From positions 2,216-66,215 of the forward strand of contig CALXRP010000006.1 of NCBI GenBank assembly GCA_944390885.1: 64,000 bases of DNA. The letters run 5' to 3'. The DNA is from an uncultured Alphaproteobacteria bacterium (GTDB taxonomy: Bacteria; Pseudomonadota; Alphaproteobacteria; RF32; CAG-239). Shown here piece after piece: positions 7,090-62,963 of this stretch. Positions within the stretch are counted from its first letter, which is position 1. Every line of letters begins with the position of its first letter. The position numbers and the translations under genes were made by a program. The notes beneath the pieces were generated by a model. That model worked only from the letters and a program-made list of their open reading frames with translations, was not told the DNA's origin and did not search any database.

Positions 7090-7464
7090 GTCATTGCCGG
7101 GCACTTTATTTTTTATGTCATCCCAGGGCTTGTTTCTTTCTAGTCATTGCGGGGCGCTTTATTTTTTTAGTCATTGCGGGGCGCTTTATTTTTTTAGTCA
7201 TTGCCGGGCTCTTTTTTTCTTTCGTCATCCCCGGGCTTGACCCGGGGATCCAAATCAAATAAATCAGCTTTATTGTTATTCTGGATCCCCGGGTCAAGCC
7301 CGGGGATGACAGAAAAATAATGTGCCGAGAATAACAAATACTTCAAAGCACTTTGTCATTCACAAATCCAGTTAGAGCAACGCGGTCTCTTGAGCACAGT
7401 ATATTCAACTCGCCGCGCACCTGCCGAGCAGGTGGATCCCCGGGTCGCAGCCCGGGGATGACAA
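7090..7464. repeat. Cluster A of the palindromic MITE/REP-like repeat family
   Basis: Half-sites GTCATTGCCGGGC + T-rich, including 2 exact 30-nt direct copies (7141..7200). Hairpin unit GTCATCCCCGGGCTTGACCCGGGGATCC at 7224..7251 and its exact reverse complement at 7284..7310 give an 87-nt near-perfect palindrome. Conserved core (..GAGCAACGCGGTCTC..CGCCGCGC..) at ~7370..7432, then a terminal inverted unit at 7433..7464. Confidence 0.85.
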
Positions 7465-12769: not shown

Positions 12770-13130
12770 TGCAAATTGATCCCTCACCCGCCGTGCAGGT
12801 CATTGCCGGACTTGATCCGGCAATCCAAATCAACAATAAAGATTTTTTATTTATCTGGATTCTCGGGTCAAGCCCGAGAATGACATAAACTTCTATACAC
12901 AAAGCCCTTCACAGACCCCCGCCGGAGCAACGCGGTCTCTGTGGCACAGTGCTGTCAACTTGCCGCGCGCCTGCCGTGCAGGTCATCCCCGGGCTTTTTT
13001 TCTAGTCATTGCCGGGCTTGACCCGGCAATCCACCCTTCAAAGCACAAAGCCCTTCACTAACACCCGTCGGAGCAACGCGGGTCACGGGGCACAATCCCG
13101 ACAACCGATCGCTGCCGACGTTCGGCCTTT
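12770..13130. repeat. Cluster B of the palindromic MITE/REP-like repeat family
   Basis: Stem variant GTCATTGCCGGACTTGATCCGGCAATCC, then GGATTCTCGGGTCAAGCCCGAGAATGACA, a conserved core (..GGAGCAACGCGGTCTCTGTGGCACAGTGCTGTCAACTTGCCGCGCGCCTGCCGTGCAGG), then GTCATCCCCGGGC, GTCATTGCCGGGCTTGACCCGGCAATCC and a second degenerate core. Confidence 0.85.
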
Positions 13131-13339
13131 GGGTCAAGCAAAAGTAAGAAAGTATTTTTGGCACTCAAAAAGTAACAAAGAAAAAACAAAAAACGAGAAA
13201 CAGAAAGAAAGGGAAAAGAATAACAAATAAAGAATGAGTTCATAGGGAGGGAAAATGAAGATAATTGTGCAGCTGCTTTAATGTCTGTTTACTTTAAAAA
13301 TATAATTTTCTATACTTCCTTTACAAGAAAGGAAATTAA

Positions 13340-13870
13340 ATGCTGAAAAAAGTTTTTTTGCTGATTTTTTGCCTGTGCACGGCCTGCACTTTGCCGGAAT
13401 ATGAAACTGAAGAAGATATGTCCGGCGGTATGAAAAAAATGCCCTGTCCTAATGTTGTTATTAACCGTTCGGATGCTTATCTGAGCCAGATTGAGGGCTA
13501 TAAAGATCATTTCAAAATTGAGCTGTACGGATACGAGGGCTATTGCTGGTTTGACGGAAAAGTAAATCTTCCCAAAGCCAATATCACACCGTTGTTTAAG
13601 CTGATTCGTCTTGATGGCGGAAAAGATGAAGCCTTTGTTATGTTTGACTGGTTTTATCATACCAGCGAAGGGCCGACTGCATTTTTGGGAGAAAAAACTT
13701 TTGTTGAACAGGTTGATGTGCCGGCTTCGGCTCAGATATACAAATTCCGCGGCAAAACGGTTGACATTCGTGTTCCGACCTTGGAAGACAGCACCTTCCG
13801 GATCAATCTCGGCCTTCGGATGACTAATCAGGAAAAACAATACAATGATTTCGCTTTTGACCTGAATTAA
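13340..13870 (+). CDS. Lipoprotein of unknown function
   Basis: Signal peptide and lipobox (LCTA-C); 176 aa. Confidence 0.5.
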   Translation: MLKKVFLLIFCLCTACTLPEYETEEDMSGGMKKMPCPNVVINRSDAYLSQIEGYKDHFKIELYGYEGYCWFDGKVNLPKANITPLFKLIRLDGGKDEAFVMFDWFYHTSEGPTAFLGEKTFVEQVDVPASAQIYKFRGKTVDIRVPTLEDSTFRINLGLRMTNQEKQYNDFAFDLN

Positions 13871-13889
13871 AAAAATAAAGGAGAAAAAT

Positions 13890-15872
13890 ATGTGCTTTTT
13901 TAAGAATGACAAGCAAATGGAACAAATGGCCAATGCCATCCGTTTTTTAAGTGCCGACGCCATAGAAAAGTCAAAATCCGGCCACCCGGGAATGCCTTTG
14001 GGAATGGCGGATGTTGCAACGGTCTTGTTCAGCCGTTTCATCAAGCTTGCTCCGGAAGCGCCGCATTGGTTTGACAGAGATCGATTTGTCTTGTCTGCCG
14101 GACATGGTTCCATGCTGCTGTATTCTTTGTTATATCTGCTGGGATATAAAGACATTTCTCTTGAAAACATCAAAAACTTTCGTCAGCTGGGCGCAAAAAC
14201 AGCCGGGCATCCGGAATACGGACATCTGGACGGAATTGATATGACGACCGGACCTTTGGGGCAGGGGATCTCTTCCGCAGTCGGCATGGCCATTGCCGAA
14301 AGGTTTGTCGCTGCCCGATTCGGTGATGATTTGTGCAGCCATTATACTTATGTCATTAACGGAGACGGCTGTCTGATGGAAGGTATTTCGGAAGAAGCCA
14401 TATCTTTAGCCGGTCATCTGGGGTTAAACAAACTGATTGTCTTTTGGGATAATAATAACATCACCATTGACGGCAGCGTAGATTCGGCCAGCTCAACAGA
14501 TCAGATTGCCCGCTTTAAGGCTCATAAATGGAACACGATTGAAATAGACGGACACAATCATCATCAGATTGCAAAGGCCATTGAAAAGGCGCAAAAGTCG
14601 GATAAGCCGACATTAATTGCCTGCAAAACCAAAATCGGTTTTGGCGCTCCGACCAAACAAGGAACCAGTAAATGCCACGGTGCGCCTCTCGGAGCGGATG
14701 AACTGGCCAAAATGCGCCAAAATTTGGGCTGGGATTATCCTGCTTTTGAAATTCCGGCAGAAATCCTTCAGGCTTGGCGCGCTGCCGGTCGCCGTCATGC
14801 TGAAACTTACAAGAGCTGGGTCGCTCGGGCTAAAGAAGCCGGAAAAGATTTTAATAATTTTATTAATAATGCCCTGCCCAAAGATTGGGATAAAGAGCTG
14901 GAAGAACTGAAAAAACAGGCTATCGCCGAAAAAACAAAAGTCGCCACGCGCAAAGCTTCGCAAATGTGTTTGGAAAAAATCGTACCCCATATTCCTGAGA
15001 TCCTTGGCGGTTCGGCAGACTTGGCAGCATCTAACCTGACAAAGGTTGCCGGGATGAAAGATATTGTCAAAGGAGATTTCAGCGGCAACAATATGGCTTA
15101 CGGAATTCGCGAACATGCTATGGCGGCGATAATGAACGGTATGTCATTGCACGGCGGCGTCATCCCTTATGGCGGCACGTTCTTTGTCTTTTCGGATTAT
15201 ATGCGGCCGGCCATGCGCTTGGCAGCCTTGATGGGGATTCGGGCAATTTATGTTTTGACACACGATTCTATCGGTGTCGGCGAAGACGGGCCGACCCATC
15301 AGCCGGTAGAACATCTGGCTTCTTATCGGGCCATGCCAAACTTGTTTACATTCCGCCCCTGCGACGTGGTTGAAACGGCAGAAGCCTGGCAACTGGCTTT
15401 GGAGAATGAAGACGCGCCGAGCATTTTGGCATTAACCAGGCAGGGATTACCGCTTTTGCGTACCTCTGCAGCAGAAAATCTGACGGCTCGCGGCGGATAT
15501 GTAATTTCGGATGTTGCCAAAGGGCAAAAAAGACAAGCAACGATTATTGCCACCGGTTCAGAAGTTTCTCTGGCCGTTGCGGCTCAGAAAAAACTTGCGG
15601 AAGAAGGAATTGCAGCAGCGGTTGTTTCCATGCCTTGCTGCGAGTTGTTTGACCGTCAGGATATCAAATATCAGGAAGAAGTTCTCGGAAATTGTCCGCG
15701 GATTGCCGTGGAAGCAGGTTCAAAATTCGGCTGGGAAAAATATGTCGGTTTGAACGGGGATATTATCGGAATGGACGGTTTTGGTGCTTCCGGCCCGGCA
15801 GAGGAATTGTATAAATTCTTCGGCATTACTGAGGAAGAAGTCGTTGATGCCGTTAAAAACAGCTTAAAATAA
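13890..15872 (+). CDS. tkt: Transketolase
   Basis: AAGGAG RBS 7 nt upstream. ThDP-binding motifs (SGHPGMPLGMADV, GDGCLMEGISEEA, NNITIDG), a pyrimidine-binding domain and a C-terminal domain. 660 aa. Confidence 0.9.
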   Translation: MCFFKNDKQMEQMANAIRFLSADAIEKSKSGHPGMPLGMADVATVLFSRFIKLAPEAPHWFDRDRFVLSAGHGSMLLYSLLYLLGYKDISLENIKNFRQLGAKTAGHPEYGHLDGIDMTTGPLGQGISSAVGMAIAERFVAARFGDDLCSHYTYVINGDGCLMEGISEEAISLAGHLGLNKLIVFWDNNNITIDGSVDSASSTDQIARFKAHKWNTIEIDGHNHHQIAKAIEKAQKSDKPTLIACKTKIGFGAPTKQGTSKCHGAPLGADELAKMRQNLGWDYPAFEIPAEILQAWRAAGRRHAETYKSWVARAKEAGKDFNNFINNALPKDWDKELEELKKQAIAEKTKVATRKASQMCLEKIVPHIPEILGGSADLAASNLTKVAGMKDIVKGDFSGNNMAYGIREHAMAAIMNGMSLHGGVIPYGGTFFVFSDYMRPAMRLAALMGIRAIYVLTHDSIGVGEDGPTHQPVEHLASYRAMPNLFTFRPCDVVETAEAWQLALENEDAPSILALTRQGLPLLRTSAAENLTARGGYVISDVAKGQKRQATIIATGSEVSLAVAAQKKLAEEGIAAAVVSMPCCELFDRQDIKYQEEVLGNCPRIAVEAGSKFGWEKYVGLNGDIIGMDGFGASGPAEELYKFFGITEEEVVDAVKNSLK

Positions 15873-15889
15873 AAATCCGGTATTTTCTA

Positions 15890-15920
15890 AAAAACTCCTG
15901 TTGACCAGGAGTTTTTTTTA
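15890..15920 (+). terminator. Rho-independent terminator after tkt
   Basis: Stem ACTCCTGG / CCAGGAGT with loop TTGA followed by T8. Confidence 0.7.
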
Positions 15921-16054
15921 GAAAAATCTGACAAAACCCGATCCATAAGCTAAAAATCGGCAAAATGTTGCAAATATGTTGACAAAGAGCAAAAGAGATA
16001 TTATCTTCTAGCCCATATTAACTTATTAAGAAATTTTTTTAAATATAGATTATT

Positions 16055-16447
16055 ATGGAATGTGCAATTTTAAAGGCATCCCAGTTTATGGATGCAGCAA
16101 AGAAAGAGTACGGTTTTAGTTTTAATTTGAACGATGTTCATATCGGCAGACTGGAGTTTTCAACCGGAGAAGTCCAAAAGGACAATGGTTATATTTGTTT
16201 TTATGCCTTTGGCGCTGGAAAAGTCTGGTATATGAAAGCCTTTAAAGGCAAGACCGTACGCAAGGTAAAGGTCGCAGATGCGCAAAATGTTAAAGTAAAG
16301 GTGGAATATCCGCCTATGCATGCTTTTAACTCTGCTTATGGCATGACCGTCTGGCATGTGGTAGAGCATGACAACGATGTAGAACTGGTTGAAGACAGCC
16401 GGTATCATTTGAGAAAAAAACACAAAGTTGCGGCTCAGTCTGCGTAA
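16055..16447 (+). CDS. Hypothetical protein (130 aa)
   Basis: Isolated ORF with its own terminator; no recognisable motifs. Confidence 0.45.
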   Translation: MECAILKASQFMDAAKKEYGFSFNLNDVHIGRLEFSTGEVQKDNGYICFYAFGAGKVWYMKAFKGKTVRKVKVADAQNVKVKVEYPPMHAFNSAYGMTVWHVVEHDNDVELVEDSRYHLRKKHKVAAQSA

Positions 16448-16457
16448 TGCACAAATT

Positions 16458-16498
16458 AAAACGTTTCGGATTTCTAGGCTCCGAAACGTTTTTTTGTT
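16458..16498 (+). terminator. Rho-independent terminator
   Basis: Stem AAACGTTTCGGA / TCCGAAACGTTT followed by a T-run. Confidence 0.75.
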
Positions 16499-16599
16499 TT
16501 TGGGATTTATGTGACTGACCGCAATAAAAAACTTGCATTATTACATTGATTGGCTATATTTGCAGTAACAATAATAAACCAACAATAAGGAGACAATAT

Positions 16600-17649
16600 A
16601 TGCCTTTAGTATCAATGCGTCAGATTCTTGACCATGCAGCCGAAAACAATTACGGTGTTCCGGCTTTTAATATTAATGATATGGAACAAATCATTGCCGT
16701 TTTGCAGGCCGCTAAAAAAGTAAACGCTCCGGTTATTTTGCAAACATCTACCGGTGCGCGCAAGTTTGCCGGTGATCCGATGATCCGTCATATGGTTGCC
16801 GCCGGGATTGAAATGTTCCCGGAACTTCCGATTTGTATTCACCAAGATCACGGCTCTTCAGTCAATATCTGTCAGTCTGCCATTGTTAACGGCTATTCTT
16901 CCGTAATGATGGACGGTTCTCTGGAAGCTGATGGCAAAACCCCTTCTTCTTTTGAATACAATGTCCGCGTGACCAAAGAAGTTGTTGCCCGCGCTCATGC
17001 CGTCGGCGCTTCCGTTGAAGGTGAGCTTGGTGTTATCGGTTCTCTCGAAACCGGCAAAGGCGATAAAGAAGACGGCCACGGTGCAGAGGGTGTGATTGAT
17101 AAAAAACGTCTGGTAACCGATCCTGACGAAGCCAAAAAATTTGTTGAAGAAACACATGTCGATGCTTTGGCCGTTGCTGTCGGAACATCTCACGGCGCAT
17201 ACAAATTCACCCGCAAGCCGACCGGCGATATTCTGGCAATTGACGTGATTGAAAAAATCCACAAAGTTCTGCCGAATACGCACATGGTTATGCATGGCTC
17301 TTCTTCCGTTCCGCAAGAATTGCAGGATCTGATTAACGCATACGGCGGCGCTATTCCGCAAACCTTCGGCGTTCCGGTAGAAGAAATTGTTCGCGGTATC
17401 AAATCCGGTGTCCGCAAGGTCAATGTTGATACAGACTGCCGCATGGCCATTACCGGCGCGATCCGCAGATTGTTTGCCGAAAATCCGAAAGAATTTGATC
17501 CGCGTAAATACCTGAAGCCGGCAATCGAAGAAATGCAAAAAGTCTGCGAAGCCCGTTATGTTGCTTTTGGTGCTGCCGGTCATGCAGACAAAATCAAGGC
17601 AATTCCGTTGTCTGTTATGGCAAAACGCTATGCCGACGGTGAAATTTAA
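16600..17649 (+). CDS. fba: Fructose-bisphosphate aldolase, class II
   Basis: AAGGAG RBS. Class II FBA motifs (PAFNINDMEQ, ILQTSTGA, IHQDHG, HGSSS). Confidence 0.85.
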   Translation: MPLVSMRQILDHAAENNYGVPAFNINDMEQIIAVLQAAKKVNAPVILQTSTGARKFAGDPMIRHMVAAGIEMFPELPICIHQDHGSSVNICQSAIVNGYSSVMMDGSLEADGKTPSSFEYNVRVTKEVVARAHAVGASVEGELGVIGSLETGKGDKEDGHGAEGVIDKKRLVTDPDEAKKFVEETHVDALAVAVGTSHGAYKFTRKPTGDILAIDVIEKIHKVLPNTHMVMHGSSSVPQELQDLINAYGGAIPQTFGVPVEEIVRGIKSGVRKVNVDTDCRMAITGAIRRLFAENPKEFDPRKYLKPAIEEMQKVCEARYVAFGAAGHADKIKAIPLSVMAKRYADGEI

Positions 17650-17765
17650 CGGAATTTCAGGTTCTTAAAAATATCAAAAACGGGGCAGAAATGCTCCGTT
17701 TTTTATTTCTGGACAAAATTAGAAAATGTGATATGGTAAATTTCTGTTTTTTTAATTATTAAGAT

Positions 17766-18194
17766 ATGAAAAAGATTATTTTGTCTTTATTTTTAATCGT
17801 AATGCTGTTTTCTTGTGCCAATATGGAAAAACCTCAAGCCGTTCGTCAGGATCGCCTGTTTGAAGAGTTTGATTTTCATTTTTTTGAGCTCAAAGAAAAC
17901 GAACGCATTGCTACTGTAAGCATCAACCTTCGTCCGGGACAGACCACAATTTTTTGGCGCAGCAACCTGCAAAGGGATTTTGTCTTTACGGTTAATGAAG
18001 AATGTGAACTGGATCGTTGCGGCAAAGAAAATTGTATTGTCACCAGTACAGAAACAGGCCACGTTATCGGTTTTGTCTTTTTGCTGCCGGAAGAAGTAGA
18101 TGAAGCGGAACGGATATTTTCTGAACTGCTGTTTTGGGAGCAGGAAGAAAATATTTGTCCGGGCTTAAAAACATTGCTCTATGAAGAGTATTAA
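17766..18194 (+). CDS. Lipoprotein of unknown function
   Basis: Signal peptide with lipobox LFS-C; 142 aa. Confidence 0.45.
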   Translation: MKKIILSLFLIVMLFSCANMEKPQAVRQDRLFEEFDFHFFELKENERIATVSINLRPGQTTIFWRSNLQRDFVFTVNEECELDRCGKENCIVTSTETGHVIGFVFLLPEEVDEAERIFSELLFWEQEENICPGLKTLLYEEY

Positions 18195-18198
18195 TGTT

Positions 18199-18237
18199 AT
18201 CCCCGTTTTAAACAACTGTTTAAACGGGGATTTTTTT
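18199..18237 (+). terminator. Rho-independent terminator
   Basis: Stem ATCCCCGTTTAAAC / GTTTAAACGGGGAT followed by T7. Confidence 0.75.
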
Positions 18238-18329
18238 ATATCCTAAATTAAGACTGGATTTTTTTATAAAATACTGCTACACCAAAGACCCTTATTTTAT
18301 TATGATGCTAATTATTAAATTTTTATAAT

Positions 18330-18671
18330 ATGATACATTTTAAAATTTTTTCTCATATCGTGGGTGTTGCGTTATTATTTGGGTCTTGTTCCGTATGCCA
18401 AAAGCAAAGCGATTACAGCTATGTTATTCGGCGGGTTCCGAAAAAAGATCAGGTTGTTTATTATCCCTTTGCTCCGGGTGACAAGATTTGCCAAATGGAC
18501 ACGCTCGTTTGCAAAAAGAAGCTCAATATTGTCTGGACATCAAAAAAATCGTCCCAACGGTATTATATGCGGCTTCCGGCAAATGCCAAAATTGTGGGAA
18601 TGGATTCCGATTGGACTTTGTTGCAGTTTCCCAATGATCGGATTCTGCTGGTCTGTTTCGGATATTATTAA
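18330..18671 (+). CDS. Putative lipoprotein (113 aa), unknown function
   Basis: Signal peptide with LFGS-C lipobox. Confidence 0.4.
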   Translation: MIHFKIFSHIVGVALLFGSCSVCQKQSDYSYVIRRVPKKDQVVYYPFAPGDKICQMDTLVCKKKLNIVWTSKKSSQRYYMRLPANAKIVGMDSDWTLLQFPNDRILLVCFGYY

Positions 18672-18757
18672 GCAGTCCGCGAAAGCGGAAAAACAAAACC
18701 CGCTTGAACTATAACGGTTCAAACGGGTTTTCTACGTTCAGGAGATGTTTAGAAGTC

Positions 18758-19267
18758 TTATTTTTGCATTGTCATATGTTCTTTTCCTGCTTCAATATCG
18801 GCAATATAATCGCCGATTTCCTGCTCATGTTCGATTTCTTCATCCAGAATATGGCGGGACATATGGAACGTGGCAAAATCTTTGCCGACGGTCATCTCGC
18901 AAATTTTCTGATACCGGGCAATGGCGCAGCGTTCCGCCACCAGATTCTGCTGCAAAAGTTTTTCTACATAATCATCAGATGGGGCGTCATACTTGCATTG
19001 TGCCGTTTTCTTCCAATCATCCGGATCAAGAAGAGGCGTGCCGCCCAGTTCGATAATGCGAGTTGCCAGCTTTTGAGCATGATCAAGTTCTTCATTGGCA
19101 TGTTCCATAAATTCGGCGGCAATATCCTTGCGCATCGGGCCGACGGCCACCTGAGCACCCATCCAATATTGATAATAAGCCAGCCATTCTTCGGCAAAGG
19201 CCACGTTTAACACATTAATCAGCTCTTTGCGGTCAACATTGCTGATTTGTTGAGCCATTTCACCCAT
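18758..19267 (-). CDS. Ferritin-like diiron protein (Dps/bacterioferritin superfamily)
   Basis: Four-helix-bundle pattern with paired E/H ligand motifs (EEWLAYYQYW, EHANEELDHAQ, VAERCAIARYQ, LDEEIEHEQEI). Confidence 0.6.
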   Translation of the reverse strand: MGEMAQQISNVDRKELINVLNVAFAEEWLAYYQYWMGAQVAVGPMRKDIAAEFMEHANEELDHAQKLATRIIELGGTPLLDPDDWKKTAQCKYDAPSDDYVEKLLQQNLVAERCAIARYQKICEMTVGKDFATFHMSRHILDEEIEHEQEIGDYIADIEAGKEHMTMQK

Positions 19268-19417
19268 CTTTACTTCTCCAAAATTAATGTTAAATCTGTT
19301 TTCGGCTTTTGATATAACTTCTGAAAATCGGAATACAAGACCGGTTCAAAAATCTTTTTTCTGGATTTTTTACCGCTGATGAGGTATCATCAGATAAACA
19401 TTTCAAGGAGAAGAAAT

Positions 19418-20053
19418 ATGGTTAAGATTGCCCCCAGTATCTTGTCAGCCGATTTCAGCCGCCTGGGCGAAGAAGTGACCGCTTTGGAAAAAGCCGGTGC
19501 CGATATGATTCATTTGGATGTCATGGACGGCAACTTTGTGCCAAACCTGACCTTTGGTCCGGGGATCATCAAGGCCTTACGCCCTAAAAGCAAACTTTGC
19601 TTTGATGTTCATTTAATGGTCAATAATCCGGACGAGATGATACCTTGGTTCATTGCCGCCGGAGCGGATATCATTACAGTTCATGCCGAGGTCTGCCGTC
19701 ATCTGGATAAGACGCTGTCTGCAATCCGCTCCTACGGAGTAAAAGCCGGTGTTTCGCTCAACCCGTCCACGCCGGAAAATGTTCTGGAATATGTGCTTGA
19801 TAAGCTGGATTTAGTGTTGGTAATGTCGGTCAATCCCGGTTTCGGCGGGCAAAAATTTATTGAAAACAGCCTGCAAAAAATTTCCCGGATAAAAGAAATG
19901 CGCGGCAGCCGTGAAATAGAAATTGAGGTCGACGGCGGCATAAACCCGTTGACGGCAGCCCGTTGCATTAGTGCCGGCGCCGATATTCTGGTTGCCGGGA
20001 CTTCTGTTTTTGCCGGTGGGGAATATGCCCGTAATATTGAGGCCTTAAGGTAA
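19418..20053 (+). CDS. rpe: Ribulose-phosphate 3-epimerase
   Basis: [34 protein letters not shown] and DGGI motifs. Confidence 0.85.
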
Positions 20054-20103
20054 TTTTAACCCGATTGCCTTAAACTGTCGGCAAACCAGGAAGGAGAAAA
20101 ATA

Positions 20104-20805
20104 ATGAAGTATACCGTAATGCTGATAGAAGATGAAGAATCTTTGGCCTTGATGCTGAAGTATAACTTGCAGAAAGAAGGTTATGATGTCGTGCATGAAG
20201 CCCGCGGCAATAAGGCGCTGGCAGCGGTAGAAAAAGTTCGTCCTTCTCTGATCCTGCTGGATTGGATGCTGCCGGAAATTTCCGGCGTTGAAATCTGCAA
20301 ACTGATTCGCAGCAATCCCGAAATCAAAAACATTCCGATAATTATGCTCACCGCCAAAGGCGAAGAAGAAGACAAAATCAAAGGGCTCTCTGCCGGCGCG
20401 GATGATTACGTTACCAAACCTTTTTCCATTCCGGAACTGATGGCGCGCGTCAAAACCAACCTGCGCCGTGCACCGGAGCCGCACCAGGAAAAAGAACTGG
20501 TGTATGAAGATATTCGGATGGATCTGACCGAGAAAAAAGTTTTTCGCGGTGACAATTACATTCACCTCGGCCCGACCGAATTTCGTTTGTTAAAAACACT
20601 GATGGAAGTGCCGGGAAAAGTCTTTTCCAGAGAGTACCTGCTCAAAACCGTATGGGGCGATAACGTTTATGTGGAATCCCGGACGGTAGACGTGCATATC
20701 CGCCGCCTGCGCAAATCCTTAAACGATTTTGGGCCGGACTATATCCGAACAGTCCGTGCCACCGGTTATTCGATTGACAAATCACTCGACAACGACGAAG
20801 CTTAA
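20104..20805 (+). CDS. PhoB-like OmpR-family response regulator
   Basis: Receiver domain (VMLIEDEESLA, LILLDWMLPE, IIMLTAKGEEEDKIKGLSAGADDYVTKPF) and winged-helix output domain. No cognate kinase adjacent. Confidence 0.75.
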   Translation: MKYTVMLIEDEESLALMLKYNLQKEGYDVVHEARGNKALAAVEKVRPSLILLDWMLPEISGVEICKLIRSNPEIKNIPIIMLTAKGEEEDKIKGLSAGADDYVTKPFSIPELMARVKTNLRRAPEPHQEKELVYEDIRMDLTEKKVFRGDNYIHLGPTEFRLLKTLMEVPGKVFSREYLLKTVWGDNVYVESRTVDVHIRRLRKSLNDFGPDYIRTVRATGYSIDKSLDNDEA

Positions 20806-20811
20806 AAAAAT

Positions 20812-21015
20812 CCGCCATGTCATCCCCGGGCTTCATTTTTTTTAGTCATCCCCGGGCATCGACCCGGGGATCCACATTTCAAGGCACAATCTTGACCGTG
20901 GAAAACAATAGAGCAACGCGGTTTCTGGAGCACAATTCTGACAACTGACCGCTCAGGCCGTCGCCTGTGGATTCTCGGGTCAAGCCCGAGAATGACATAA
21001 GAAAAGAAAGCCCGA
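20812..21015. repeat. Cluster C of the palindromic MITE/REP-like repeat family (3' flank of autotransporter gene)
   Basis: Reads GTCATCCCCGGGC half-site, GTCATCCCCGGGCATCGACCCGGGGATCC, conserved core (CAAGGCACAATCTTGACCGTGGAAAACAATAGAGCAACGCGGTTTCTGGAGCACAATTCTGACAACTGACCGCTCAGGCCGTCGCCTGTGG), then GGATTCTCGGGTCAAGCCCGAGAATGACA and a CCCGAGAATGAC half-site. Confidence 0.85.
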
Positions 21016-21082
21016 GAATGACTGTGCCTTTATGCCCTTCACAACCCCCGCCGGGTGCGCCGCCGCCGTTCGGCCGGACGGA

Positions 21083-24000
21083 TTAAAATTCATAACTAAC
21101 ACCGGCTTGGAGGTCAAAACCTTCGCGTCCGCCGTTACGATAAACAAGTTGGAAATAGCTGTCCACAACATCCCATTCCTTTATCACGCCAAGCGCATAT
21201 TCACTATATGGCTTAACCGATATTTCCGGCAAAACAACATTATTCGCCTTAACCTTGCTGTCATCAACCAGATTCCAATAATAACTATACCCGATATACG
21301 GCATCCAGCCGTTGCCGACATCCCACATCAGGCGCAGTCCGGGCGTCAGCTGTACAATCTGTATGGCGTCGGAATCTATATCAACACCGGCAGATGTTGT
21401 ATAATCTGATGTTTTCACATAAGTATAACTTCCCATAAAGCTCGGCTGCAGTGTAAAGCCGTCCCCGAGATAAAAATTCCTGCCGGCTTTCATGGCAAAA
21501 CCCGTAGAAAGATTATGAAAATCATCCGTGCCAAAACGCGTGTGTGCCTTGCCGTCGCCATACATCACATTAGCTGTCAGTCCTGTCCAGAATTCCCCGC
21601 GTTTAAACATTGCGCTTGCGCCTAATACCGCTGCTTTTTGGTTAATTCTGACACCGTCATATTTCTGACGAGAGCCTGTTGTTCCGACATAGCCGGAAAA
21701 TACGCCGTCCCAACAATTGTCAAAATAAACTTTCCGGCTGTCTAATCCGACAAGCATACCCCATACCCGGTTGTCAACTTTCGGGCCGTTATCCAAACTG
21801 ACTTCTTCATCGCTCATAAACGGCCTCATCCATGCCCGTCCGGCCATCACATCGCCGGATGCCAGACCCGCCGGAGAAACCGGCATCATCGCCGTGTTTC
21901 CTAACGCTTCGCGATAAACATTGGCTTGCGAAATATAAACCCCGGCATTTGTGCTCACCGGAACAGTCGTCACATCCGGGTTCAAATCGCCATAGCTGAC
22001 ATCGCCGCCGGAGGCGCCGCTTTCCGCTTTTCCGGCATTGATAAATTCTATTTCACCGGTAGTTTTGTCATATGACGCATCATATTTATAAATCGGACCA
22101 TATGCTTCTATATCTTTTTTCATGCTTGCCTGTTCCGACAAACCGTCTTTTGTATCAATAACGGCCACTTTTGTGTTGGGTGAAGTCTCATCACTCAAGA
22201 TATTTAACTCGTCAATAAACAATGATCCGCCATGCAGGTTTATGGTATCTGCCGTAATAAAGTCGCCGGTCTTGTTCGCCAGGTCAATATCCAATCCCAA
22301 GCGGGTCACGCCGGACATCAGGTTGAGTTCTTTGGGGCTAAAACGATTGATTGCCTCGTCAATCAGGCTGATTTTTCCGCCAAAAGTATTAAAGCCGCTG
22401 GTTGAAAAGTCGCTCCCTGATTTCATCACCGCCGTAACATCACCGCCTAAATAAAGCGCCTGTTCTTTGACTTCGTTACCAAACTCAACCCGCCCGCTTT
22501 CATCGCCGGTTATGTTTATGCCGGGAAACTCCGAAACACTGACAGGAAGTTGCATAACATACCCGTCTTCGGTCTTATGAAAAACTACTTCCTGCTCGTC
22601 TATAACAATATGATAATCATCGCCTTGTTGCGTAATCTGCGCACCCTGATTTTTCAGGCTTTCCAATACAGCCCCCACATCTTCTGTCGGAAGAATATCA
22701 GAATAATCTCTCGTCACATAGCCGCTATCCGTCCAAGCCAGATGTCCCAGCAGATTCTCTCCGTCATAAACATAATATCCGCCGGCATTATCCGAAACAA
22801 CGTCATAGCGCCCATTTTGGGACAATCCTTCCTCTATATCAATATAAACGCCGTTAATTTTATCATCAAACCGGATAATCCCGTTATTAACGGCATCTAA
22901 GGTCAAACTTCCGAGGTTATAAATTGCTTCACTGTCTTCAATCTTGTTGTCATTCTCATCATTATGAATAACCTTATTGCCGGAGAATTCCGATATTCCG
23001 TTATCGGCTGTGATTGTTAGGGTTCCTTCATTATAAATAGCCCCGCCCAAAGCCTCATTACCTGCTTGAGCATGGTTGTCATAAAAACTGCTGTTGGTTA
23101 TGCTCATCGTTCCTTCATTATAAATAGCCCCACCGAAAGCATCGCCATTATCAGCTCGAGCATAGTTGTCATAAAAATTGCTGTTGGTTATGCTCATCGT
23201 TCCGTTAGAGCCATTATATATCGCCCCGCCTTGGGCTGTTTTACTCGTCGCAAGTGACTGAGCATAGTTACCACTAAAATCTCCGGTGATATCCCCAATG
23301 ATACCGCTATTATAAATAGCTCCGCCTTGGCCCCAGCCGTTAGCATAGTTACCGGTAAAATCGCCGGTGATATTGCCGATACTTCCGCTATTATCAATAG
23401 CCCCGCCGAAAGCATCGCTAGTATTTGATTGAGTATAATTACCGGTAAAATCGCCGGTGATATTGCCGATACTTCCGCTATTATCAATAGCCCCGCCGAA
23501 AGCACGGCCCTTATCAGCTTGAGCATAGTTACCGGTAAAATCGCCGGTGATATTGCCGATACTTCCGCTATTATCAATAGCCCCGCCGAAAGCACGGCCC
23601 TTATCAGCTTGAGCATAGTTACCGGTAAAATCGCCGGTGATATTGCTGATGCTTCCGATATTATAAATAGCCCCGCCGAAAGCGCTATAAAGAGATGTTG
23701 CATAGTTATTTATAAAATCCGCGTTGATGTAATCCAACGTACCGTTGTTCCTTATAGGAAAAGCATATGTACTGCTGCCCACGCTGCCCATATTTTCAAA
23801 AACCACGTTTTTGATTTGCAAATCTGTTTGGGTAGAGGAAGAAAACTTAAGAAAATTTCCACCAGTTTCATTAGAAATAGAATTTCCCTGGCCGTCAATG
23901 ACAATACCGGGAACAGCTGTAGTAAGTGCAGAATTATCTGGAACAACAATGTTTTTGTCTAAATAGACTGTTCCGCCGGCGCCGGCACCGTCTACGCCGT

Positions 24001-24172
24001 TCTCTACCGCACTCTTCAATTCCGCCCAGGTCGAGACATGAATCTCTGCTGCCCAAACCGGCCTCAAAGCCAGCAAAACCGCCGGAATCAACACACTATA
24101 ATACAACTTCTTTCTAAACATCGTCCCTCTCCAAATTCTTTTGGATAAACTCATTAACGTATCATACCACAT
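21083..24172 (-). CDS. Autotransporter with Pmp-type (GGAI / FxxN) repeat passenger domain and C-terminal beta-barrel
   Basis: Signal peptide (..VLLALRPVWAAE). More than 10 GGAI(Y/D)N and F.GN/FYDN motifs. C-terminal ~280 aa of alternating amphipathic strands ending ..GVSYEF. Confidence 0.75.
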   Translation of the reverse strand: MWYDTLMSLSKRIWRGTMFRKKLYYSVLIPAVLLALRPVWAAEIHVSTWAELKSAVENGVDGAGAGGTVYLDKNIVVPDNSALTTAVPGIVIDGQGNSISNETGGNFLKFSSSTQTDLQIKNVVFENMGSVGSSTYAFPIRNNGTLDYINADFINNYATSLYSAFGGAIYNIGSISNITGDFTGNYAQADKGRAFGGAIDNSGSIGNITGDFTGNYAQADKGRAFGGAIDNSGSIGNITGDFTGNYTQSNTSDAFGGAIDNSGSIGNITGDFTGNYANGWGQGGAIYNSGIIGDITGDFSGNYAQSLATSKTAQGGAIYNGSNGTMSITNSNFYDNYARADNGDAFGGAIYNEGTMSITNSSFYDNHAQAGNEALGGAIYNEGTLTITADNGISEFSGNKVIHNDENDNKIEDSEAIYNLGSLTLDAVNNGIIRFDDKINGVYIDIEEGLSQNGRYDVVSDNAGGYYVYDGENLLGHLAWTDSGYVTRDYSDILPTEDVGAVLESLKNQGAQITQQGDDYHIVIDEQEVVFHKTEDGYVMQLPVSVSEFPGINITGDESGRVEFGNEVKEQALYLGGDVTAVMKSGSDFSTSGFNTFGGKISLIDEAINRFSPKELNLMSGVTRLGLDIDLANKTGDFITADTINLHGGSLFIDELNILSDETSPNTKVAVIDTKDGLSEQASMKKDIEAYGPIYKYDASYDKTTGEIEFINAGKAESGASGGDVSYGDLNPDVTTVPVSTNAGVYISQANVYREALGNTAMMPVSPAGLASGDVMAGRAWMRPFMSDEEVSLDNGPKVDNRVWGMLVGLDSRKVYFDNCWDGVFSGYVGTTGSRQKYDGVRINQKAAVLGASAMFKRGEFWTGLTANVMYGDGKAHTRFGTDDFHNLSTGFAMKAGRNFYLGDGFTLQPSFMGSYTYVKTSDYTTSAGVDIDSDAIQIVQLTPGLRLMWDVGNGWMPYIGYSYYWNLVDDSKVKANNVVLPEISVKPYSEYALGVIKEWDVVDSYFQLVYRNGGREGFDLQAGVSYEF
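23261..23710. repeat. Intragenic 90-nt tandem repeats (about 5 copies, two identical) encoding the 30-aa unit FGGAIDNSGSIGNITGDFTGNYAQADKGRA
   Basis: Copies at 23441..23530 and 23531..23620 are identical. Flanking copies at ~23351 and ~23621 are diverged. Confidence 0.8.
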
Positions 24173-24249
24173 TTCTCACCCAAAATCAATGAATATTTGA
24201 AAGTGCTAAATTTATTTTGTCTTCCGAGTCTCCTTTCTCTCCGTGCTTA

Positions 24250-25005
24250 TTTTTTTATCATCATCCCGAGCCCGTTTTTTCTAGTCATCCCCGGGCACTT
24301 TATTTTTTCTCGTCATCCCCGGGCTTGACCCGGGGATCCAAATCAAACATAAGGCTTCTTTTTTATCTGGATTCTCGGGTCAAGCCCGAGAATGACAGTA
24401 CCTTTATGCTCTTCACAACTCCCGCCGGAGCACCGCGGCCTCTGTGGTACAGTACTTTCAACCCGCCGCGCGCCTGCCGTGCAGGTCATCCCCAGGCTAT
24501 CTTTTTTATTATGTCATCCCCGGGCACTTTATTTTTTCTCGTCATCCCCGGGCTTGACCCGGGGATCCAAATCAAACATAAGGCTTCTTTATTTATCTGG
24601 ATTCTCGGGTCAAGCCCGAGAATGACAATACCTTTATGTTCTTCACAACTCCCGCCTGAGCACCGCGGGTCACGGAGCACATTGCTTTCAACCCGCCGCG
24701 CGCCTGCCGTGCAGGTCATCCCCGGGCACTTTATTTTTTATGTCATCCCCGGGCACTTTATTTTTTATGTCATCCCCGGGCAGTGTTTTTTTCTAGTCAT
24801 CCCCGGGCTTCGACCCGGGGATCCACTCTTCAAGGCACAATCTTGACCGTGGAAAACAATAGAGCAACGCGGTCTCTGGAGCACAATTCTGACAACTGAC
24901 CGCTCAGGCCGTTGCCTGTGGATTCTCGGGTCAAGCCCGAGAATGACTAGAAAAAAGAATCCGAGAATGACATAGGAAAAGAAAGCCTGAGAATGACGGT
25001 GCTTA
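24250..25005. repeat. Cluster D of the palindromic MITE/REP-like repeat family (5' flank of autotransporter gene), including a tandemly duplicated ~215-bp composite unit
   Basis: Composite unit = half-site + GTCATCCCCGGGCTTGACCCGGGGATCC + spacer + GGATTCTCGGGTCAAGCCCGAGAATGACA + core ending CGCGCGCCTGCCGTGCAGGTCATCCCC. Present at 24274..24494 and again at 24508..24723, then 3 half-sites, a full hairpin, a second core type and a right-end inverted unit with degenerate half-sites. Confidence 0.85.
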
Positions 25006-25269
25006 AAAACAATTCCCCCTCTTTGCTAAGAGGGGGATAGGGGGCGTTAGAAATGCCCTTTAACGAGTACTTCTTAGTCTTTGTGAAAAAGAGGAAATTA
25101 AAATCACTATGTGTCTTCTTGCCGTCTTAGCCTTGCGCTTAGACGGCCTGAACTTTTTCACGAAGACTTAGAAAACGAGTTCAGAGCTAGTATTTTTGCT
25201 TTTATGGCTGCCGACGTTCGGCCGCGATCCTCATGGCACCGCATAAACCGATCGCCGCCGACGTTCGGC

Positions 25270-25286
25270 TGGCACGGTATTTGCAT
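25270..25286 (+). promoter_or_regulatory. Sigma54 (RpoN) -24/-12 promoter upstream of flgF
   Basis: TGGCAC-GGTAT-TTGCA matches TGGCAC-N5-TTGCW exactly. It lies ~45 nt upstream of the flgF start. Confidence 0.65.
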
Positions 25287-29318: not shown

Positions 29319-29394
29319 CAGAAAATTGCAGCAAAAAACGCGGAGAATAACCTCCGCGTTTTTTTTGTGTGGCTATAACTTTATTTTCTTTCTA

Positions 29395-29655
29395 GTCATT
29401 GCCGGGCACTTTATTTTTTTTCTAGTCATCCCCGGGCTTCGACCCGGGGATCCATATTTCAAAGCACCTTGTCATTCACAAATCCCGTCATAGCAGCGCG
29501 GTCTCTTAGGCACAGTGTATTCAACTCGCCGCGCGCCTGCCGTGCAGGTCATCCCCGGGCTTGACCCGGCAATCCACTTGGCGTCACCCAAAGGGTGTGA
29601 CCCGGGGATCCGTTTGACGTCACACCCTCAGGGTGACACAGAATGACAGAAAAAA
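29395..29655. repeat. Cluster E of the palindromic MITE/REP-like repeat family
   Basis: Half-sites, GTCATCCCCGGGCTTCGACCCGGGGATCC, core (..CATAGCAGCGCGGTCTCTTAGGCACAGTGTATTCAACTCGCCGCGCGCCTGCCGTGCAGG), GTCATCCCCGGGCTTGACCCGGCAATCC, plus a distinct hairpin pair GTCACCC..GGGTGTGAC / GTCACACCC..GGGTGAC. Confidence 0.8.
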
Positions 29656-31573: not shown

Positions 31574-33046
31574 ATGAGCGATGAAGTTAGCATTCACAGA
31601 CAAGGGCGGCTGAACAAGCTGAATGCCCTGTTAGAAATGGGCTATAATCCGTATCCGTACAAGTTTTCTCCCAATGCCTTTGCCAAAGATCTGCAGGAGA
31701 AATATAAAGATCTGGAAAACGGTGCCCATACGGAAGACCGCGTAACGATTGCCGGCCGCGCCATGGCTGTCCGCAATGACGGCATGTTTATTGACGTGAA
31801 AGACAAAACCGGTACAATTCAGGCATTTTGCCATAAATGCAATCTGGATGAAGCTAACCTGAAACTGCTCAAATGCCTGGATATCGGTGATATGGTCGGC
31901 ATAACCGGTTTTATCCGCCGTACGCCGCGCGGAGAGCTTTCCGTTGCCGCCGAGAAATTTGATATTATTGCAAAATCGCTGGAACCGCTGCCGGAAAAAT
32001 TCCACGGCATGACGGATGTGGAAGCGCGCTATCGTCAGCGTTATGTTGATATGATTATTAATGACGAGGCCAAAGAGGTTTTAATCACCCGTTGCAAGAT
32101 TATTTCCGCCGTTCGCGAATACTTTAACAATAACGGTTTTCTGGAAGTAGAAACCCCAACGCTGCATCCGATTATGGGCGGCGCTTCGGCCAAACCGTTT
32201 ATCACCCATTACAATGCTCTGGATAATGATTTTTATCTGCGCGTTGCTCCGGAACTTTATCTGAAAAAATTGATCGTCGGCGGCATGGATCGCGTTTTTG
32301 AAATCGGCAAAAACTTCCGCAATGAAGGGATTGATAAAAACCATAATCCTGAATTTACCGCTTTGGAAGCCTATATGGCCTATGCCGATTATCATGACGG
32401 AGCCGAGCTGATCTCCGGCGTTATCCGTTATGTTGCCAAACGCGTTTTCGGAAAAGAAGAGTTTCAGGTTGGCGATTATACGATAGATGTTTCAAAACCG
32501 TTTGAAAAAATTTCAATGATTGATTTAATCAAGCGTGAATGCGGGATTAATCTTTTGGATGCCGCAACGGTAGAAGAGGCCAGAGCCATGGCCAAACAGG
32601 CCGGTGTAAACGCTGATGACTGCGATTGCTGGGGCAAGGTCGTTGTGGCCGTATTTGATGAAAAGGTGGAGCATAAGCTGATCCAACCGATACATGTTAT
32701 GGATATGCCGCGCGACGTTTCTCCCTTGGCCAAAACGCACCGTTCCGAACCGCGCCTGGTTGAGCATTTTGATACTTATATTGCCGGAATGGAAGTCGGC
32801 TGCTCATATTCCGAGCTGTCCAATCCGCTGGAACAACGGGAGCGTTTTGAGGCTCAGGTCAAAGCCCGTGAAAACGGTGATGATGAAGCCCAGATGATGG
32901 ATGAGAGTTTCTTGGACGCGCTGGATCACGGTTTTGTTCCGACAACCGGTTTGGGAATGGGGATGGACCGCCTGGCTAAGATAATGACCAACTCGGCAAC
33001 GCTGCGGGATGTAATCTTATTCCCGACCCTGCGGCCTAAAAAATAA
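31574..33046 (+). CDS. lysS: Lysine--tRNA ligase, class II
   Basis: N-terminal OB anticodon-binding domain. Class II motifs 2 and 3 (..FRNEGID..HNPEFT.LE, ..GLGMGMDRL.MI.T) and FEIGKNFRNE. Confidence 0.9.
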   Translation: MSDEVSIHRQGRLNKLNALLEMGYNPYPYKFSPNAFAKDLQEKYKDLENGAHTEDRVTIAGRAMAVRNDGMFIDVKDKTGTIQAFCHKCNLDEANLKLLKCLDIGDMVGITGFIRRTPRGELSVAAEKFDIIAKSLEPLPEKFHGMTDVEARYRQRYVDMIINDEAKEVLITRCKIISAVREYFNNNGFLEVETPTLHPIMGGASAKPFITHYNALDNDFYLRVAPELYLKKLIVGGMDRVFEIGKNFRNEGIDKNHNPEFTALEAYMAYADYHDGAELISGVIRYVAKRVFGKEEFQVGDYTIDVSKPFEKISMIDLIKRECGINLLDAATVEEARAMAKQAGVNADDCDCWGKVVVAVFDEKVEHKLIQPIHVMDMPRDVSPLAKTHRSEPRLVEHFDTYIAGMEVGCSYSELSNPLEQRERFEAQVKARENGDDEAQMMDESFLDALDHGFVPTTGLGMGMDRLAKIMTNSATLRDVILFPTLRPKK

Positions 33047-33053
33047 GAAAATA

Positions 33054-33117
33054 AAAATCCCGGAATTTTGAACTGTTCCCCGAAAGTTGAACAGTTCATT
33101 TTTCGGGATTTTTTTTG
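33054..33117 (+). terminator. Compound rho-independent terminator after lysS
   Basis: Outer stem AAAATCCCGGAA / TTCGGGATTTT enclosing inner hairpin GAACTGTTC..GAACAGTTC, followed by T8. Confidence 0.65.
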
Positions 33118-33470
33118 TTTATTAAAAATAGAATCGAAAGTTGTAAAAAGCAAAAAAGAACATTTCGAATCGATATTTATTATAAAAATTGCCAAATTAT
33201 TTTTAATAATACCTTCCGAAAACAGTTAAAAATTTGTTTTGTCTCAAAAATATGTCTCATAAAAATAAAAGGTGTAAAAGTGGCCGGATTCTAAAGAAAA
33301 TAGCCATTTTTTTGAGATAAGACATGTATAGATATGTATATTTTTGATATATTACAAGCTAAGGTTTAAAAAAGATGTTGATTTTTGAAAATTTTTATAA
33401 TATAGTCCATTTGTCTATATTATTGTATAAAAGTTAAAAAAATGATAATTTTAATTTGAAAGATTAATAA

Positions 33471-34373
33471 ATGCTCAGCAAAAAAGAAATGGCTGCTTTT
33501 AACGCTTTATATTATCTTTATGCAATATCAATAAACCACTCCAAAAGAGAAGTTGCTGATTTGCTTGGCACTTCTGTCGACACCATCAACAAATATATCT
33601 CTGATCTTGAATATGAACTCGGTGTTACCCTCCTGAACAGCAACGGCAGAGGAACAGCCCTCACGCCGGAAGGAATTTTTTATGTTAAGGCAGCAGAAAA
33701 TATTGTTAATGCTTTGCGCAGACTCACAACGGGAGAAAGATATTCTCCTGCTGATAGCCAGACGATTAAAATTTCTATGCCGGATACAATTTCCTGCGAT
33801 TTTGGTGAAAAAAGCATCAAGACCTTTATGGAAAAACATCCCGACATAAATATCATAACAGAAATAGAAGATTGCCCGGATGTCAAAGCGGATATCTGCC
33901 TTTCAGTAGAGCGTCCGAAAGATGACAGTTGGGTGAGCGTTGCAGAAAAGAATATTTTCTGCGGCTTATATGCTTCTCGCCTTTATTTGAAAAAACACGG
34001 AATGCCGAAAGATTACGGCGACTTGATAAACAGTCATCGCATTTGCAGCAGAAATTCAAGCGAAAATTTCATTCCGGGGTGGGGAGAAGTATTAAGGACT
34101 TCTCCCTTCGTCGTTTTACGGCACAATTCTGTCTTTGCCCATTATTCGGCAATTAAAAACGGTATCGGAATTGGCATCTGTTCTCAAAATTATGCGTGTA
34201 ATGATTTGGTAAAGATCAAAACCGTTACAGACTTTGATACAACTTACAAAATATATTTAAGCGCTCGTAAAGATGTCATGGAAACACCTCAGATAAAAGC
34301 CTTTCTCGAATTTTCGAAAGGCTTTTTTAACGGCGAAAAAAACTCGGAAAATAGCAAAAAAAACAAAAAATGA
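33471..34373 (+). CDS. LysR-type transcriptional regulator
   Basis: N-terminal HTH (..LGTSVDTINKYISDLEYELGVTLLNSNGRGTALTPEG) and a C-terminal substrate-binding domain. Gene and its ~350-nt upstream region are markedly AT-rich. Confidence 0.75.
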   Translation: MLSKKEMAAFNALYYLYAISINHSKREVADLLGTSVDTINKYISDLEYELGVTLLNSNGRGTALTPEGIFYVKAAENIVNALRRLTTGERYSPADSQTIKISMPDTISCDFGEKSIKTFMEKHPDINIITEIEDCPDVKADICLSVERPKDDSWVSVAEKNIFCGLYASRLYLKKHGMPKDYGDLINSHRICSRNSSENFIPGWGEVLRTSPFVVLRHNSVFAHYSAIKNGIGIGICSQNYACNDLVKIKTVTDFDTTYKIYLSARKDVMETPQIKAFLEFSKGFFNGEKNSENSKKNKK

Positions 34374-60100: not shown

Positions 60101-60148
60101 GCGGAAACGTGGTAAAGCATATTAAAACTTCTTTGCGACATTTGCGCA

Positions 60149-60790: not shown

Positions 60791-60791
60791 T

Positions 60792-61745: not shown

Positions 61746-61784
61746 ATTACCGTTCTTTCATATATTTTGTGTTGTCTCTCTTTA

Positions 61785-62954: not shown

Positions 62955-62963
62955 TGTTTCTCC

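Follow-up and report, generated by a model that had tools for sequence, protein, structure and literature searches.

The Sca autotransporters of Rickettsia and Orientia, among them rOmpA (Sca0), are an alphaproteobacterial type Va multi-gene family in which the number and order of the repeat units vary by strain and in which members of the family are present in some isolates and absent from others. The Pmp autotransporters of Chlamydia, which alternate GGA(I/L/V) and FxxN motifs, are likewise a family of paralogues that recombine and are highly polymorphic between strains, and some pmp genes phase-vary through poly-G tracts. Between genes, the Correia elements (CREE) of Neisseria are small elements with inverted-repeat ends that are often found near outer-membrane genes, vary between strains and lie at rearrangement breakpoints. 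Here we consider a locus that can be compared with each of these, carried on a 64-kb stretch of DNA (the window) of contig CALXRP010000006.1 from an uncultured gut alphaproteobacterium: a minus-strand autotransporter gene with Pmp-like motifs, placed between a response-regulator gene and flgF, with an array of palindromic repeats on each side (array C after its stop, array D upstream of its start; Table 1). We consider it probable that the gene belongs to a multi-copy autotransporter family whose passenger changes by in-frame unit recombination and segmental recombination, with REPIN-like arrays acting as rearrangement points and with a conserved promoter lying outside the arrays.

As in the chlamydial proteins, GGAI and FxxN motifs alternate in an autotransporter that is part of a paralogous and polymorphic family, but the window gene has no poly-G tract and its units are a recent, nearly identical tandem array at the DNA level. 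The window elements share with the Correia elements their inverted ends, their intergenic position next to a surface-protein gene, their variability between strains and their presence at breakpoints; unlike them, they show no TA or consistent target-site duplication and, according to conserved-block analysis, they contribute no promoter. The Sca families (PMC6168176, PMC4453529, PMC6908463) resemble the present one in being alphaproteobacterial, type Va and multi-gene, with conserved beta-domains and near-identical tandem repeats in the passenger, whereas no sequence relationship could be detected beyond the barrel family, the 30-aa GGAI/FxxN turns found here contrast with rOmpA repeats of 72-75 aa, the host is not obligately intracellular but a flagellated gut bacterium, free-living or commensal, and here the copies share a homogenised 5' leader and C-terminal half. 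The doublets of the window resemble REPINs as these have been defined (PMC3337134, PMC3116915) and, like the REP/BIME clusters and REPINs of gamma-proteobacteria, the elements are intergenic imperfect palindromes whose inverted doublets give long hairpins, are grouped in mosaic clusters with fixed linker modules, vary between strains and act as rearrangement sites; their sequence is different, however, with a GTCAT head and not GTAG, and long non-palindromic modules and tandem half-units with T-rich tails are present here.

The minus-strand open reading frame (ORF) 21083..24172, described in the initial annotation as a 1029-aa autotransporter, is present in the window and carries a Pfam Autotransporter beta-domain (PF03797; residues 780-979 of this ORF, 66.5 bits with a cut-off of 26), but its proposed start is probably not the true one. 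The real coding sequence (CDS) is likely to begin at ATG 24121 and to encode 1012 aa, because 13 of 14 aligned homologues start at M18 (MFRKKLYY; the exception, P0008, was called from an earlier start), because this ATG is preceded by the ribosome-binding site GGAGAGG (24132-24126) and is invariant in the alignment of 10 upstream regions, and because ATG 24172 falls within the predicted -10 region of the candidate sigma-70 promoter. The AlphaFold2 (AF2) model, built from a 34-sequence alignment, has a mean predicted local distance difference test (pLDDT) score of 81.9 and comprises a helix at residues 8-18, continuous short strands from 25 to 700 (pLDDT mostly 80-98), a second helix at 715-739 and a barrel at 762-1011. 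Using Foldseek, the barrel was matched to the translocators of EspP, BrkA, Hbp, AIDA-I and NalP (E 2e-11 to 1e-8, target TM-score 0.69-0.85), and a Sec signal peptide, MFRKKLYYSVLIPAVLLALRPVWA/AE, could be read directly from the sequence in agreement with the first helix of the model. On sequence and predicted structure the product is a classical type Va autotransporter, with signal peptide, beta-rich passenger, helical linker and 12-strand-type barrel, and it is most likely an adhesin-like surface protein of a flagellated gut alphaproteobacterium. An exact-sequence look-up of the 1012-aa product returned no match and no NCBIfam model matched the protein at E <= 0.01; a PDB sequence search gave RecA-fusion matches only, which were judged spurious.

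The passenger contains eight GGAI motifs, each followed by F(T/S/Y)(G/D)N and spaced 27-35 aa apart, and part of this region is an array of tandem units at the DNA level. Tandem Repeats Finder (TRF) reported a period of 90 with 3.8 copies and 93 % matches at 23342-23683, the repeat search gave five copies across 23255-23696, and identity among the array units ranges from 67 to 96 %. An exact repeat of 118 nt at offset 90 (23439-23556 being equal to 23529-23646) shows that one unit has been perfectly duplicated, and the perfectly periodic stretch 23439-23646 extends over 208 nt. We could therefore confirm that the gene holds about five tandem 90-nt repeats, two of them identical, as had been described initially. 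The 'Pmp repeat' label that these units had received is valid at the motif level only: the GGAI and FxxN motifs are there, but the curated Pmp repeat models (PF02415 and TIGR01376) do not recognise the protein, PF02415 (Chlam_PMP) giving 19.7 bits, under its cut-off of 20.6, and the NCBIfam set giving nothing, while precomputed PF02415 matches are carried by some distant homologues. Unit lengths (81-96 nt) are all multiples of 3 and in frame, and the region 21083-24300 contains no 2-6-nt repeat of five or more copies and no homopolymer of 7 nt or more, except T7 at 24250, which lies outside the core promoter. All seven complete family genes that were re-translated from their loci have an intact ORF.

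The gene was compared with 25 related loci from gut metagenomes and metagenome-assembled genomes (MAGs), the close homologues coming all from ENA or NCBI sources. The family is multi-copy, with at least four paralogues in one MAG, and its members are found in at least five different gene neighbourhoods. Close homologues are 72-91 % identical, measure 864-1046 aa and carry 3-9 GGAI units; their first 50 residues, their last ~450 residues and the ~105 nt before the ATG are almost invariant and residues ~50-560 are hypervariable. Identity along the gene is a mosaic, with 100 % blocks beside blocks of 67-85 %: three alleles show 100 % identity from about nt 300 to 590 of the gene, after which the number and order of the units differ, and the window allele matches L002 and L012 at 100 % for several hundred nt, beyond which units with alternative linkers, ADKGRAF versus SNTSDAF, differ in number and order. 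In same-species pairs, whose flanks are ~98 % identical, the passenger is only 66-76 % identical, with synonymous divergence (dS) of about 1 and a nonsynonymous to synonymous ratio (dN/dS) of 0.24-0.48, and the barrel is 90-100 % identical, with dN/dS of 0.02-0.10. This pattern fits segmental conversion, or allele import, into the passenger combined with homogenisation and purifying selection elsewhere. Both size and phase variation had been proposed for the locus; the first is seen in the range of unit numbers and protein lengths, whereas phase variation by slippage finds no support, because the units are in frame and neither the gene nor the core promoter has a homopolymer tract or short tandem repeat that could serve as substrate.

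The arrays on the two sides of the gene are part of a dispersed family of elements. The motif GTCATCCCCGGGC, with at most 2 mismatches, has 28 matches in the window against 1.06 expected, and none of 100 shuffles reaches 28. These matches fall into five intergenic clusters (7090-7462, 12872-13017, 20819-21022 within array C, 24284-24947 within array D, and 29395-29560), the largest being that of array D, which holds 13 of the 28 and is extended by degenerate units to about the limits given in Table 1; arrays on both sides of the gene, with the upstream one the largest, had been reported before and are borne out. Array C begins 12 nt past the response-regulator stop, runs on to the autotransporter stop and is made up of T-rich half units, a 173-nt long element (20836-21008), more half units and a module ending in the 16-nt motif GCCGCCGCCGTTCGGC. 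The long element forms a direct repeat on both sides of the gene, its second copy (24787-24959, 94 % identical) lying in array D together with a 230-nt tandem (24275-24781, 2.2 copies), 27-nt half-unit/T-rich modules (24715-24808, 3.5 copies) and two 85-nt hairpin elements (24312-24396 and 24541-24626). Inverted repeats are many in the array D region, for example 24300-24340 with 24919-24959. The 85-nt inverted doublets fold into ~28-bp hairpins, with z-scores of -7.6 to -8.8 for the two in array D and of -5.5 to -12.9 for the 85-87-nt doublets overall; the arms of the elements are small palindromes, and the stem versions CCCCGGG/CCCGGGG, TTGCCGG/CCGGCAA and TCTCGGG/CCCGAGA all keep the pairing.

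The elements are short, extragenic, imperfectly palindromic, present in many copies and organised in hairpin-forming inverted doublets, as are REP/BIME or REPIN sequences, and the arrays are REP/BIME- or REPIN-like mosaics that occupy many intergenic regions and are not specific to this gene. The element motif is found beside the gene in 9 of 9 alphaproteobacterial loci, versus 0 of 5 unrelated loci. No Y1 transposase domain (RAYT) was detected in the 20 small window ORFs scanned, RAYT being single-copy and the rest of the genome lying outside this search. The elements have inverted ends (GTCATCCCCGGGC ... GCCCGAGAATGAC), as would a miniature inverted-repeat transposable element, but this assignment was rejected because no target-site duplication could be read in the bases flanking the different copies of the window. 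Two plus-strand ORFs of array D (24217-24846 and 24406-24846, 146-209 aa) were also rejected as genes, their translations merely repeating the DNA modules; such pseudo-ORFs do get annotated by gene callers (211 aa in L025) and are almost certainly not genes.

Three copies of the element match the Rfam family RF02625 (WsnRNA46), the best of them, at 7210-7326, with 57.9 bits and the two of array D (24297-24412 and 24526-24642) with 40-43 bits, values that do not reach the gathering score of 65.3. In the full-window search these copies match on both strands (E about 1e-10 to 4e-5), which is expected of a palindromic DNA repeat, unlike an oriented RNA gene. The architecture is the same, with conserved positions GTCAT-stem-TGAC-stem-GGATCCA ... 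CTGGATTC-stem-...-ATGAC; the differences are the scores (40-58 bits), which stay below the gathering level, and the match on both strands. The likeness suggests that the Wolbachia WsnRNA46 family may derive from a related REPIN-like palindromic repeat that is more widespread in Alphaproteobacteria, and it bears on how that 'small RNA' family is interpreted. Literature listings on WsnRNA-46 and on the palindromic elements of Rickettsia contained nothing that ties either to the present element. At gathering thresholds Rfam finds nothing in the window, which also contains no tRNAs, and microRNA-family matches on the hairpins were dismissed as generic hairpin matches.

It could be asked whether such arrays are functional, the downstream one as a bidirectional terminator or mRNA stabiliser and the upstream one as an insulator or a set of binding sites tuning the autotransporter and flgF promoters, array size then modulating expression. 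REP elements have terminator, stabiliser or binding-type roles in enterobacteria, and the stable hairpins with their pairing-preserving stem variants, as well as the location of clusters at convergent gene ends (array C and 29378-29640) and between divergent promoters (array D), are in line with such roles. A terminator scan, however, gave 6 sites versus 5.5 in shuffles, clusters occur in every kind of intergenic context, and their presence and number vary freely between strains that are 98-99 % identical, so that we regard a function of this kind as possible but unlikely.

Ten contigs encode exactly the response regulator of the window, with flanks 95-99.8 % identical, and were taken as same-species loci. 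Six of them (L015, L019-L021, L023 and L024) have an occupied site. In the other four (L016, L017, L018 and L022) the site is empty, the response-regulator gene being followed by repeat modules and then by flgF, with a spacer of 529-786 nt in L016-L018 (L022 ends within flgF). The complete genes found at this site, considering all same-species contigs, are the window allele, an 864-aa version (L015) and a 1013-aa version (L013). Array length and composition also differ between strains with flanks 98-99 % identical. Among same-species contigs the spacer between the convergent stops ranges from 277 to ~583 nt, and the spacer between the autotransporter ATG and flgF, which is 1210 nt long in the window and 855 nt long in L015, measures about 430-590 nt elsewhere.

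Larger changes are found at the same repeats. In a sister species (L004 and L014, ~94.5 % identical in flagellar genes) an 8-kb segment bounded by repeat modules (Table 1) is missing at this place: window ~12775/12884 is joined straight to the 3' flank of the autotransporter gene, and the SPOUT-methyltransferase gene adjoins that flank via the same GCCCGAGAATGAC unit. In L001 the flagellar side is 98 % identical and the other side is unrelated. The 8-kb indel and the break in L001 show that repeat clusters coincide with structural breakpoints, and the initial proposal that the flanks are recombination-prone is supported by the array differences between strains, by the gene missing from four contigs and by this indel. 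At the cluster after flaF, L016 and L017 have about 16 nt in place of the element 29434-29547, which L001 also lacks; a single element is thus polymorphic for an indel between 99 %-identical strains.

The 16-nt motif that closes array C lies 3' of the stop in nearly every family member and 5' of flgF in every locus, and has further copies in the window at 25207-25222, 25254-25269 and 13111-13126. In the empty site of L017, the module normally found 3' of autotransporter stops is joined via this motif, GCCGCCGNCGTTCGGC, to the upstream region of flgF, a junction that may be read as a deletion scar; the junctions of L016 and L018 differ from it and are located inside array modules. An ambitious interpretation would make the gene family, with its leader, 16-nt motif and REPIN-like arrays, a portable cassette system, in which complete expressed surface-protein genes are exchanged, lost and re-inserted at motif-bearing sites chromosome-wide and between strains, with the arrays as portable homology and with an element family that would be an ancient alphaproteobacterial repeat also underlying WsnRNA46; we find this rather improbable. 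Alternatively, a mobile cassette of gene, promoter and array could integrate and excise site-specifically at an att-like motif. This would account for the copies in unrelated contexts (at least five neighbourhoods) and for the occupied and empty states of the response-regulator/flgF site, and it agrees with the position of the motif after nearly every family stop and before flgF, with the clean junction of L017 and with the motif copy 13111-13126 at the edge of the 8-kb indel. It is nonetheless improbable: at other loci the motif is missing from the upstream end of the copies, the L016 and L018 junctions lie elsewhere, and there is no integrase or transposase in or beside the cassette. The motif is itself part of a longer repeat module, so that the junction is explained by ordinary deletion, either homologous or mediated by microhomology.

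Transcription of the autotransporter gene is most likely driven by a conserved promoter of the sigma-70 type located between array D and the ATG. Conservation across all ten orthologous and paralogous loci extends over the block 24122-24226, the last ~105 nt ahead of the ATG, and upstream of about -105 the same ten loci diverge into different repeat modules. The promoter had initially been described as embedded in palindromes; this view is not supported, as the candidate TTGATT-17-TATGAT lies in the conserved block, and the arrays would therefore change the context of the gene and not its core promoter. In the 99.6 %-identical contig L025, array D is the same base for base from 24280 on and nearly all differences are concentrated in 24175-24279, just upstream of the -35 box, and the upstream context can therefore change by patch replacement. 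On the other side of array D, the pattern TGGCAY-N5-TTGCW has its sole match in the window at TGGCACGGTATTTGCA, the promoter of sigma-54 type for the divergent operon flgF-flgG-flgA-flgH, which lies 46 nt ahead of the flgF ATG 25332. This match is kept in empty and occupied sites alike and borders directly on the 16-nt motif at the edge of the autotransporter cassette. From the positions of the two candidates, both core promoters thus lie at the edges of array D and not inside it. Enhancer sites of the flagellar operon, if any, would lie in the variable region. An invariant locus with a promoter outside the arrays had been named at the outset as what would speak against rearrangement here: across contigs the locus is far from invariant, and the candidate promoter does lie outside the arrays.

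These observations also bear on the possibility of a programmed contingency locus, in which slipped-strand events in the 90-nt repeats, or palindromic rearrangement or inversion of the promoter, would cause frequent on/off switching of the adhesin inside a single population. The perfect 208-nt stretch of period 90, the many inverted repeats upstream (24300-24340 with 24919-24959 among them) and the patch in which the near-identical L025 differs would be compatible with such switching, but we judge it very unlikely. Slippage by units that are multiples of 3 keeps the frame, the 5' part of the CDS and the promoter spacer are without short-repeat or homopolymer tracts, and the complete family genes re-translated were intact in seven cases of seven. 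An invertible promoter was likewise rejected, the inverted repeats of the array lying upstream and not enclosing the conserved core promoter; the genes neighbouring the autotransporter are those of the response regulator, rpe and flgF, with no adjacent recombinase gene in the annotations. Neither a simple repeat altering frame or spacing nor an invertible promoter with a recombinase, as expected of a phase-variable contingency locus, is therefore found. Recombinational variation of size and content is supported among strains and paralogues, whereas neither promoter scrambling nor phase variation is. The locus, a clear example of surface variation driven by recombination, is thus an ordinary one and no on/off switch.

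In the recombining multi-copy family that we favour, homologous recombination would hold the copies to near-identity in the promoter, the leader and the C-terminal ~450-600 residues. The passenger would vary by two routes, the first being the gain, loss and reshuffling of ~90-nt units, always in frame, by unequal crossing-over or replication slippage, and the second segmental gene conversion or allele import. As dispersed stretches of homology, the arrays would act as break and rejoin points and would expand and contract between strains; together with the 16-nt motif they would bring about the loss (or gain) of the complete cassette that lies between the response-regulator gene and flgF, as well as larger indels, altering the upstream context but not the core promoter. 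The selective agent would presumably be host immunity or phage.

Several points weigh against this reading. The comparison contigs are all of metagenome or MAG origin, where alleles and paralogues are not always separable, and the variation documented from these assemblies is that between strains and paralogues. Two contigs from the same sample, L019 (at its end) and L025 (at its start), break inside the perfect 90-nt duplicate and, as short-read assemblers break or collapse repeats, exact unit counts, possibly including that of the window, are uncertain. The dN/dS of the passenger (0.25-0.68) is raised but does not exceed 1, and relaxed constraint is possible instead of diversifying selection. 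The autotransporter promoter is a consensus match only, and its conservation could be due in part to the same gene conversion that homogenises the 5' end. Finally, no transposase or recombinase that would explain the spread of the elements was found in the 20 small window ORFs scanned. That much of the variation is an assembly artefact, near-identical paralogue 3' halves and repeated flanks producing mis-joins, collapsed units or a skipped gene, is highly improbable: besides the two breaks just mentioned several contigs do end in arrays or in the gene, but arrays C and D share no exact match longer than 45 nt, below typical final k-mers, which makes it less likely that the empty sites arose by simple mis-joins, the four empty-site contigs come from different samples and have each their own, internally consistent junction, array D recurs base for base in the independent contig L025, and the alleles differ by many substitutions and not by copy number alone.

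Table 1. Features of the autotransporter locus and its surroundings, in window coordinates.
Feature	Position	Strand	Basis
8-kb segment (transketolase, FBP aldolase, ferritin, Rpe, OmpR-type response regulator) bounded by repeat modules	12885..21009	.	Comparison with L004 and L014
Array C, between the convergent stops of the response-regulator and autotransporter genes (277 nt)	20817..21082	.	Repeat searches
16-nt motif GCCGCCGCCGTTCGGC, right after the autotransporter stop	21059..21074	+	Repeat family; 3' of nearly every family member
Autotransporter CDS (likely start)	21083..24121	-	ORF, conserved start, ribosome-binding site, PF03797, AF2 model
Predicted C-terminal translocator beta-barrel, ~aa 762-1012	21086..21838	-	AF2 secondary structure, Foldseek, dN/dS
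Predicted alpha-helical linker ahead of the barrel, aa 715-739	21905-21979	-	AF2 model
Eight GGAI/FxxN (Pmp-like) passenger units	22943..23677	-	Motif register; high-confidence beta-rich region of the AF2 model
Tandem array of five ~90-nt units (30, 30, 30, 27, 32 aa)	23231..23677	-	TRF, repeat search, unit identities
Candidate sigma-70 promoter: TTGATT (24189-24184), 17 nt, TG-extended TATGAT (24166-24161)	24161..24189	-	Consensus scan
Variable junction patch between conserved promoter block and array D	24226..24279	.	Alternative versions among loci; L025 differences
Array D, mosaic of palindromic units	24262..24997	.	Repeat searches, TRF, folding
Conserved non-palindromic module with strong hairpin (25014-25037), between array D and flgF	24983..25222	.	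Comparison, folding
Sigma-54 type promoter TGGCACGGTATTTGCA of the divergent flgF-flgG-flgA-flgH operon	25270..25285	+	46 nt before the flgF ATG 25332

The conserved non-palindromic module between array D and flgF has a fold z-score of -5.5, is 98 % identical to positions 5299-5418 of L006 and recurs ahead of other family members in another MAG; it is present upstream of two paralogues, L003 and L005, as well as in L015 and L018. It has no Rfam match and may be a small RNA or a regulatory module. Within the 8-kb segment, L020 (359-2374) and L024 (349-2364) carry an insertion of ~2 kb after the transketolase gene, between window positions 15872 and 15979, which encodes a 585-aa ORF on the opposite strand without Pfam match. 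A second tandem repeat, of period 60 (4.7 copies, 75 % matches, 49855-50135), lies in a 142-aa minus-strand ORF (49845-50273), also without Pfam match. The G+C content falls to 32-37 % at 33001-34000 and 60001-64000, compared with about 45 % elsewhere, and these could be acquired regions.

The locus does not change current concepts and is a clean example rather than a new mechanism, comparable to the rickettsial Sca/rOmpA and chlamydial Pmp families but set amid REP/BIME-like repeats. For metagenome assembly and binning such loci are trouble spots, contigs breaking in the 90-nt array and in the flanking arrays. For the organism, it means that a surface-protein family of an uncultured alphaproteobacterium of the human or animal gut varies at four levels, namely repeat number, mosaic alleles, flanking arrays and gene presence, and genes of this kind are likely to help determine colonisation, recognition by the immune system or susceptibility to phage.

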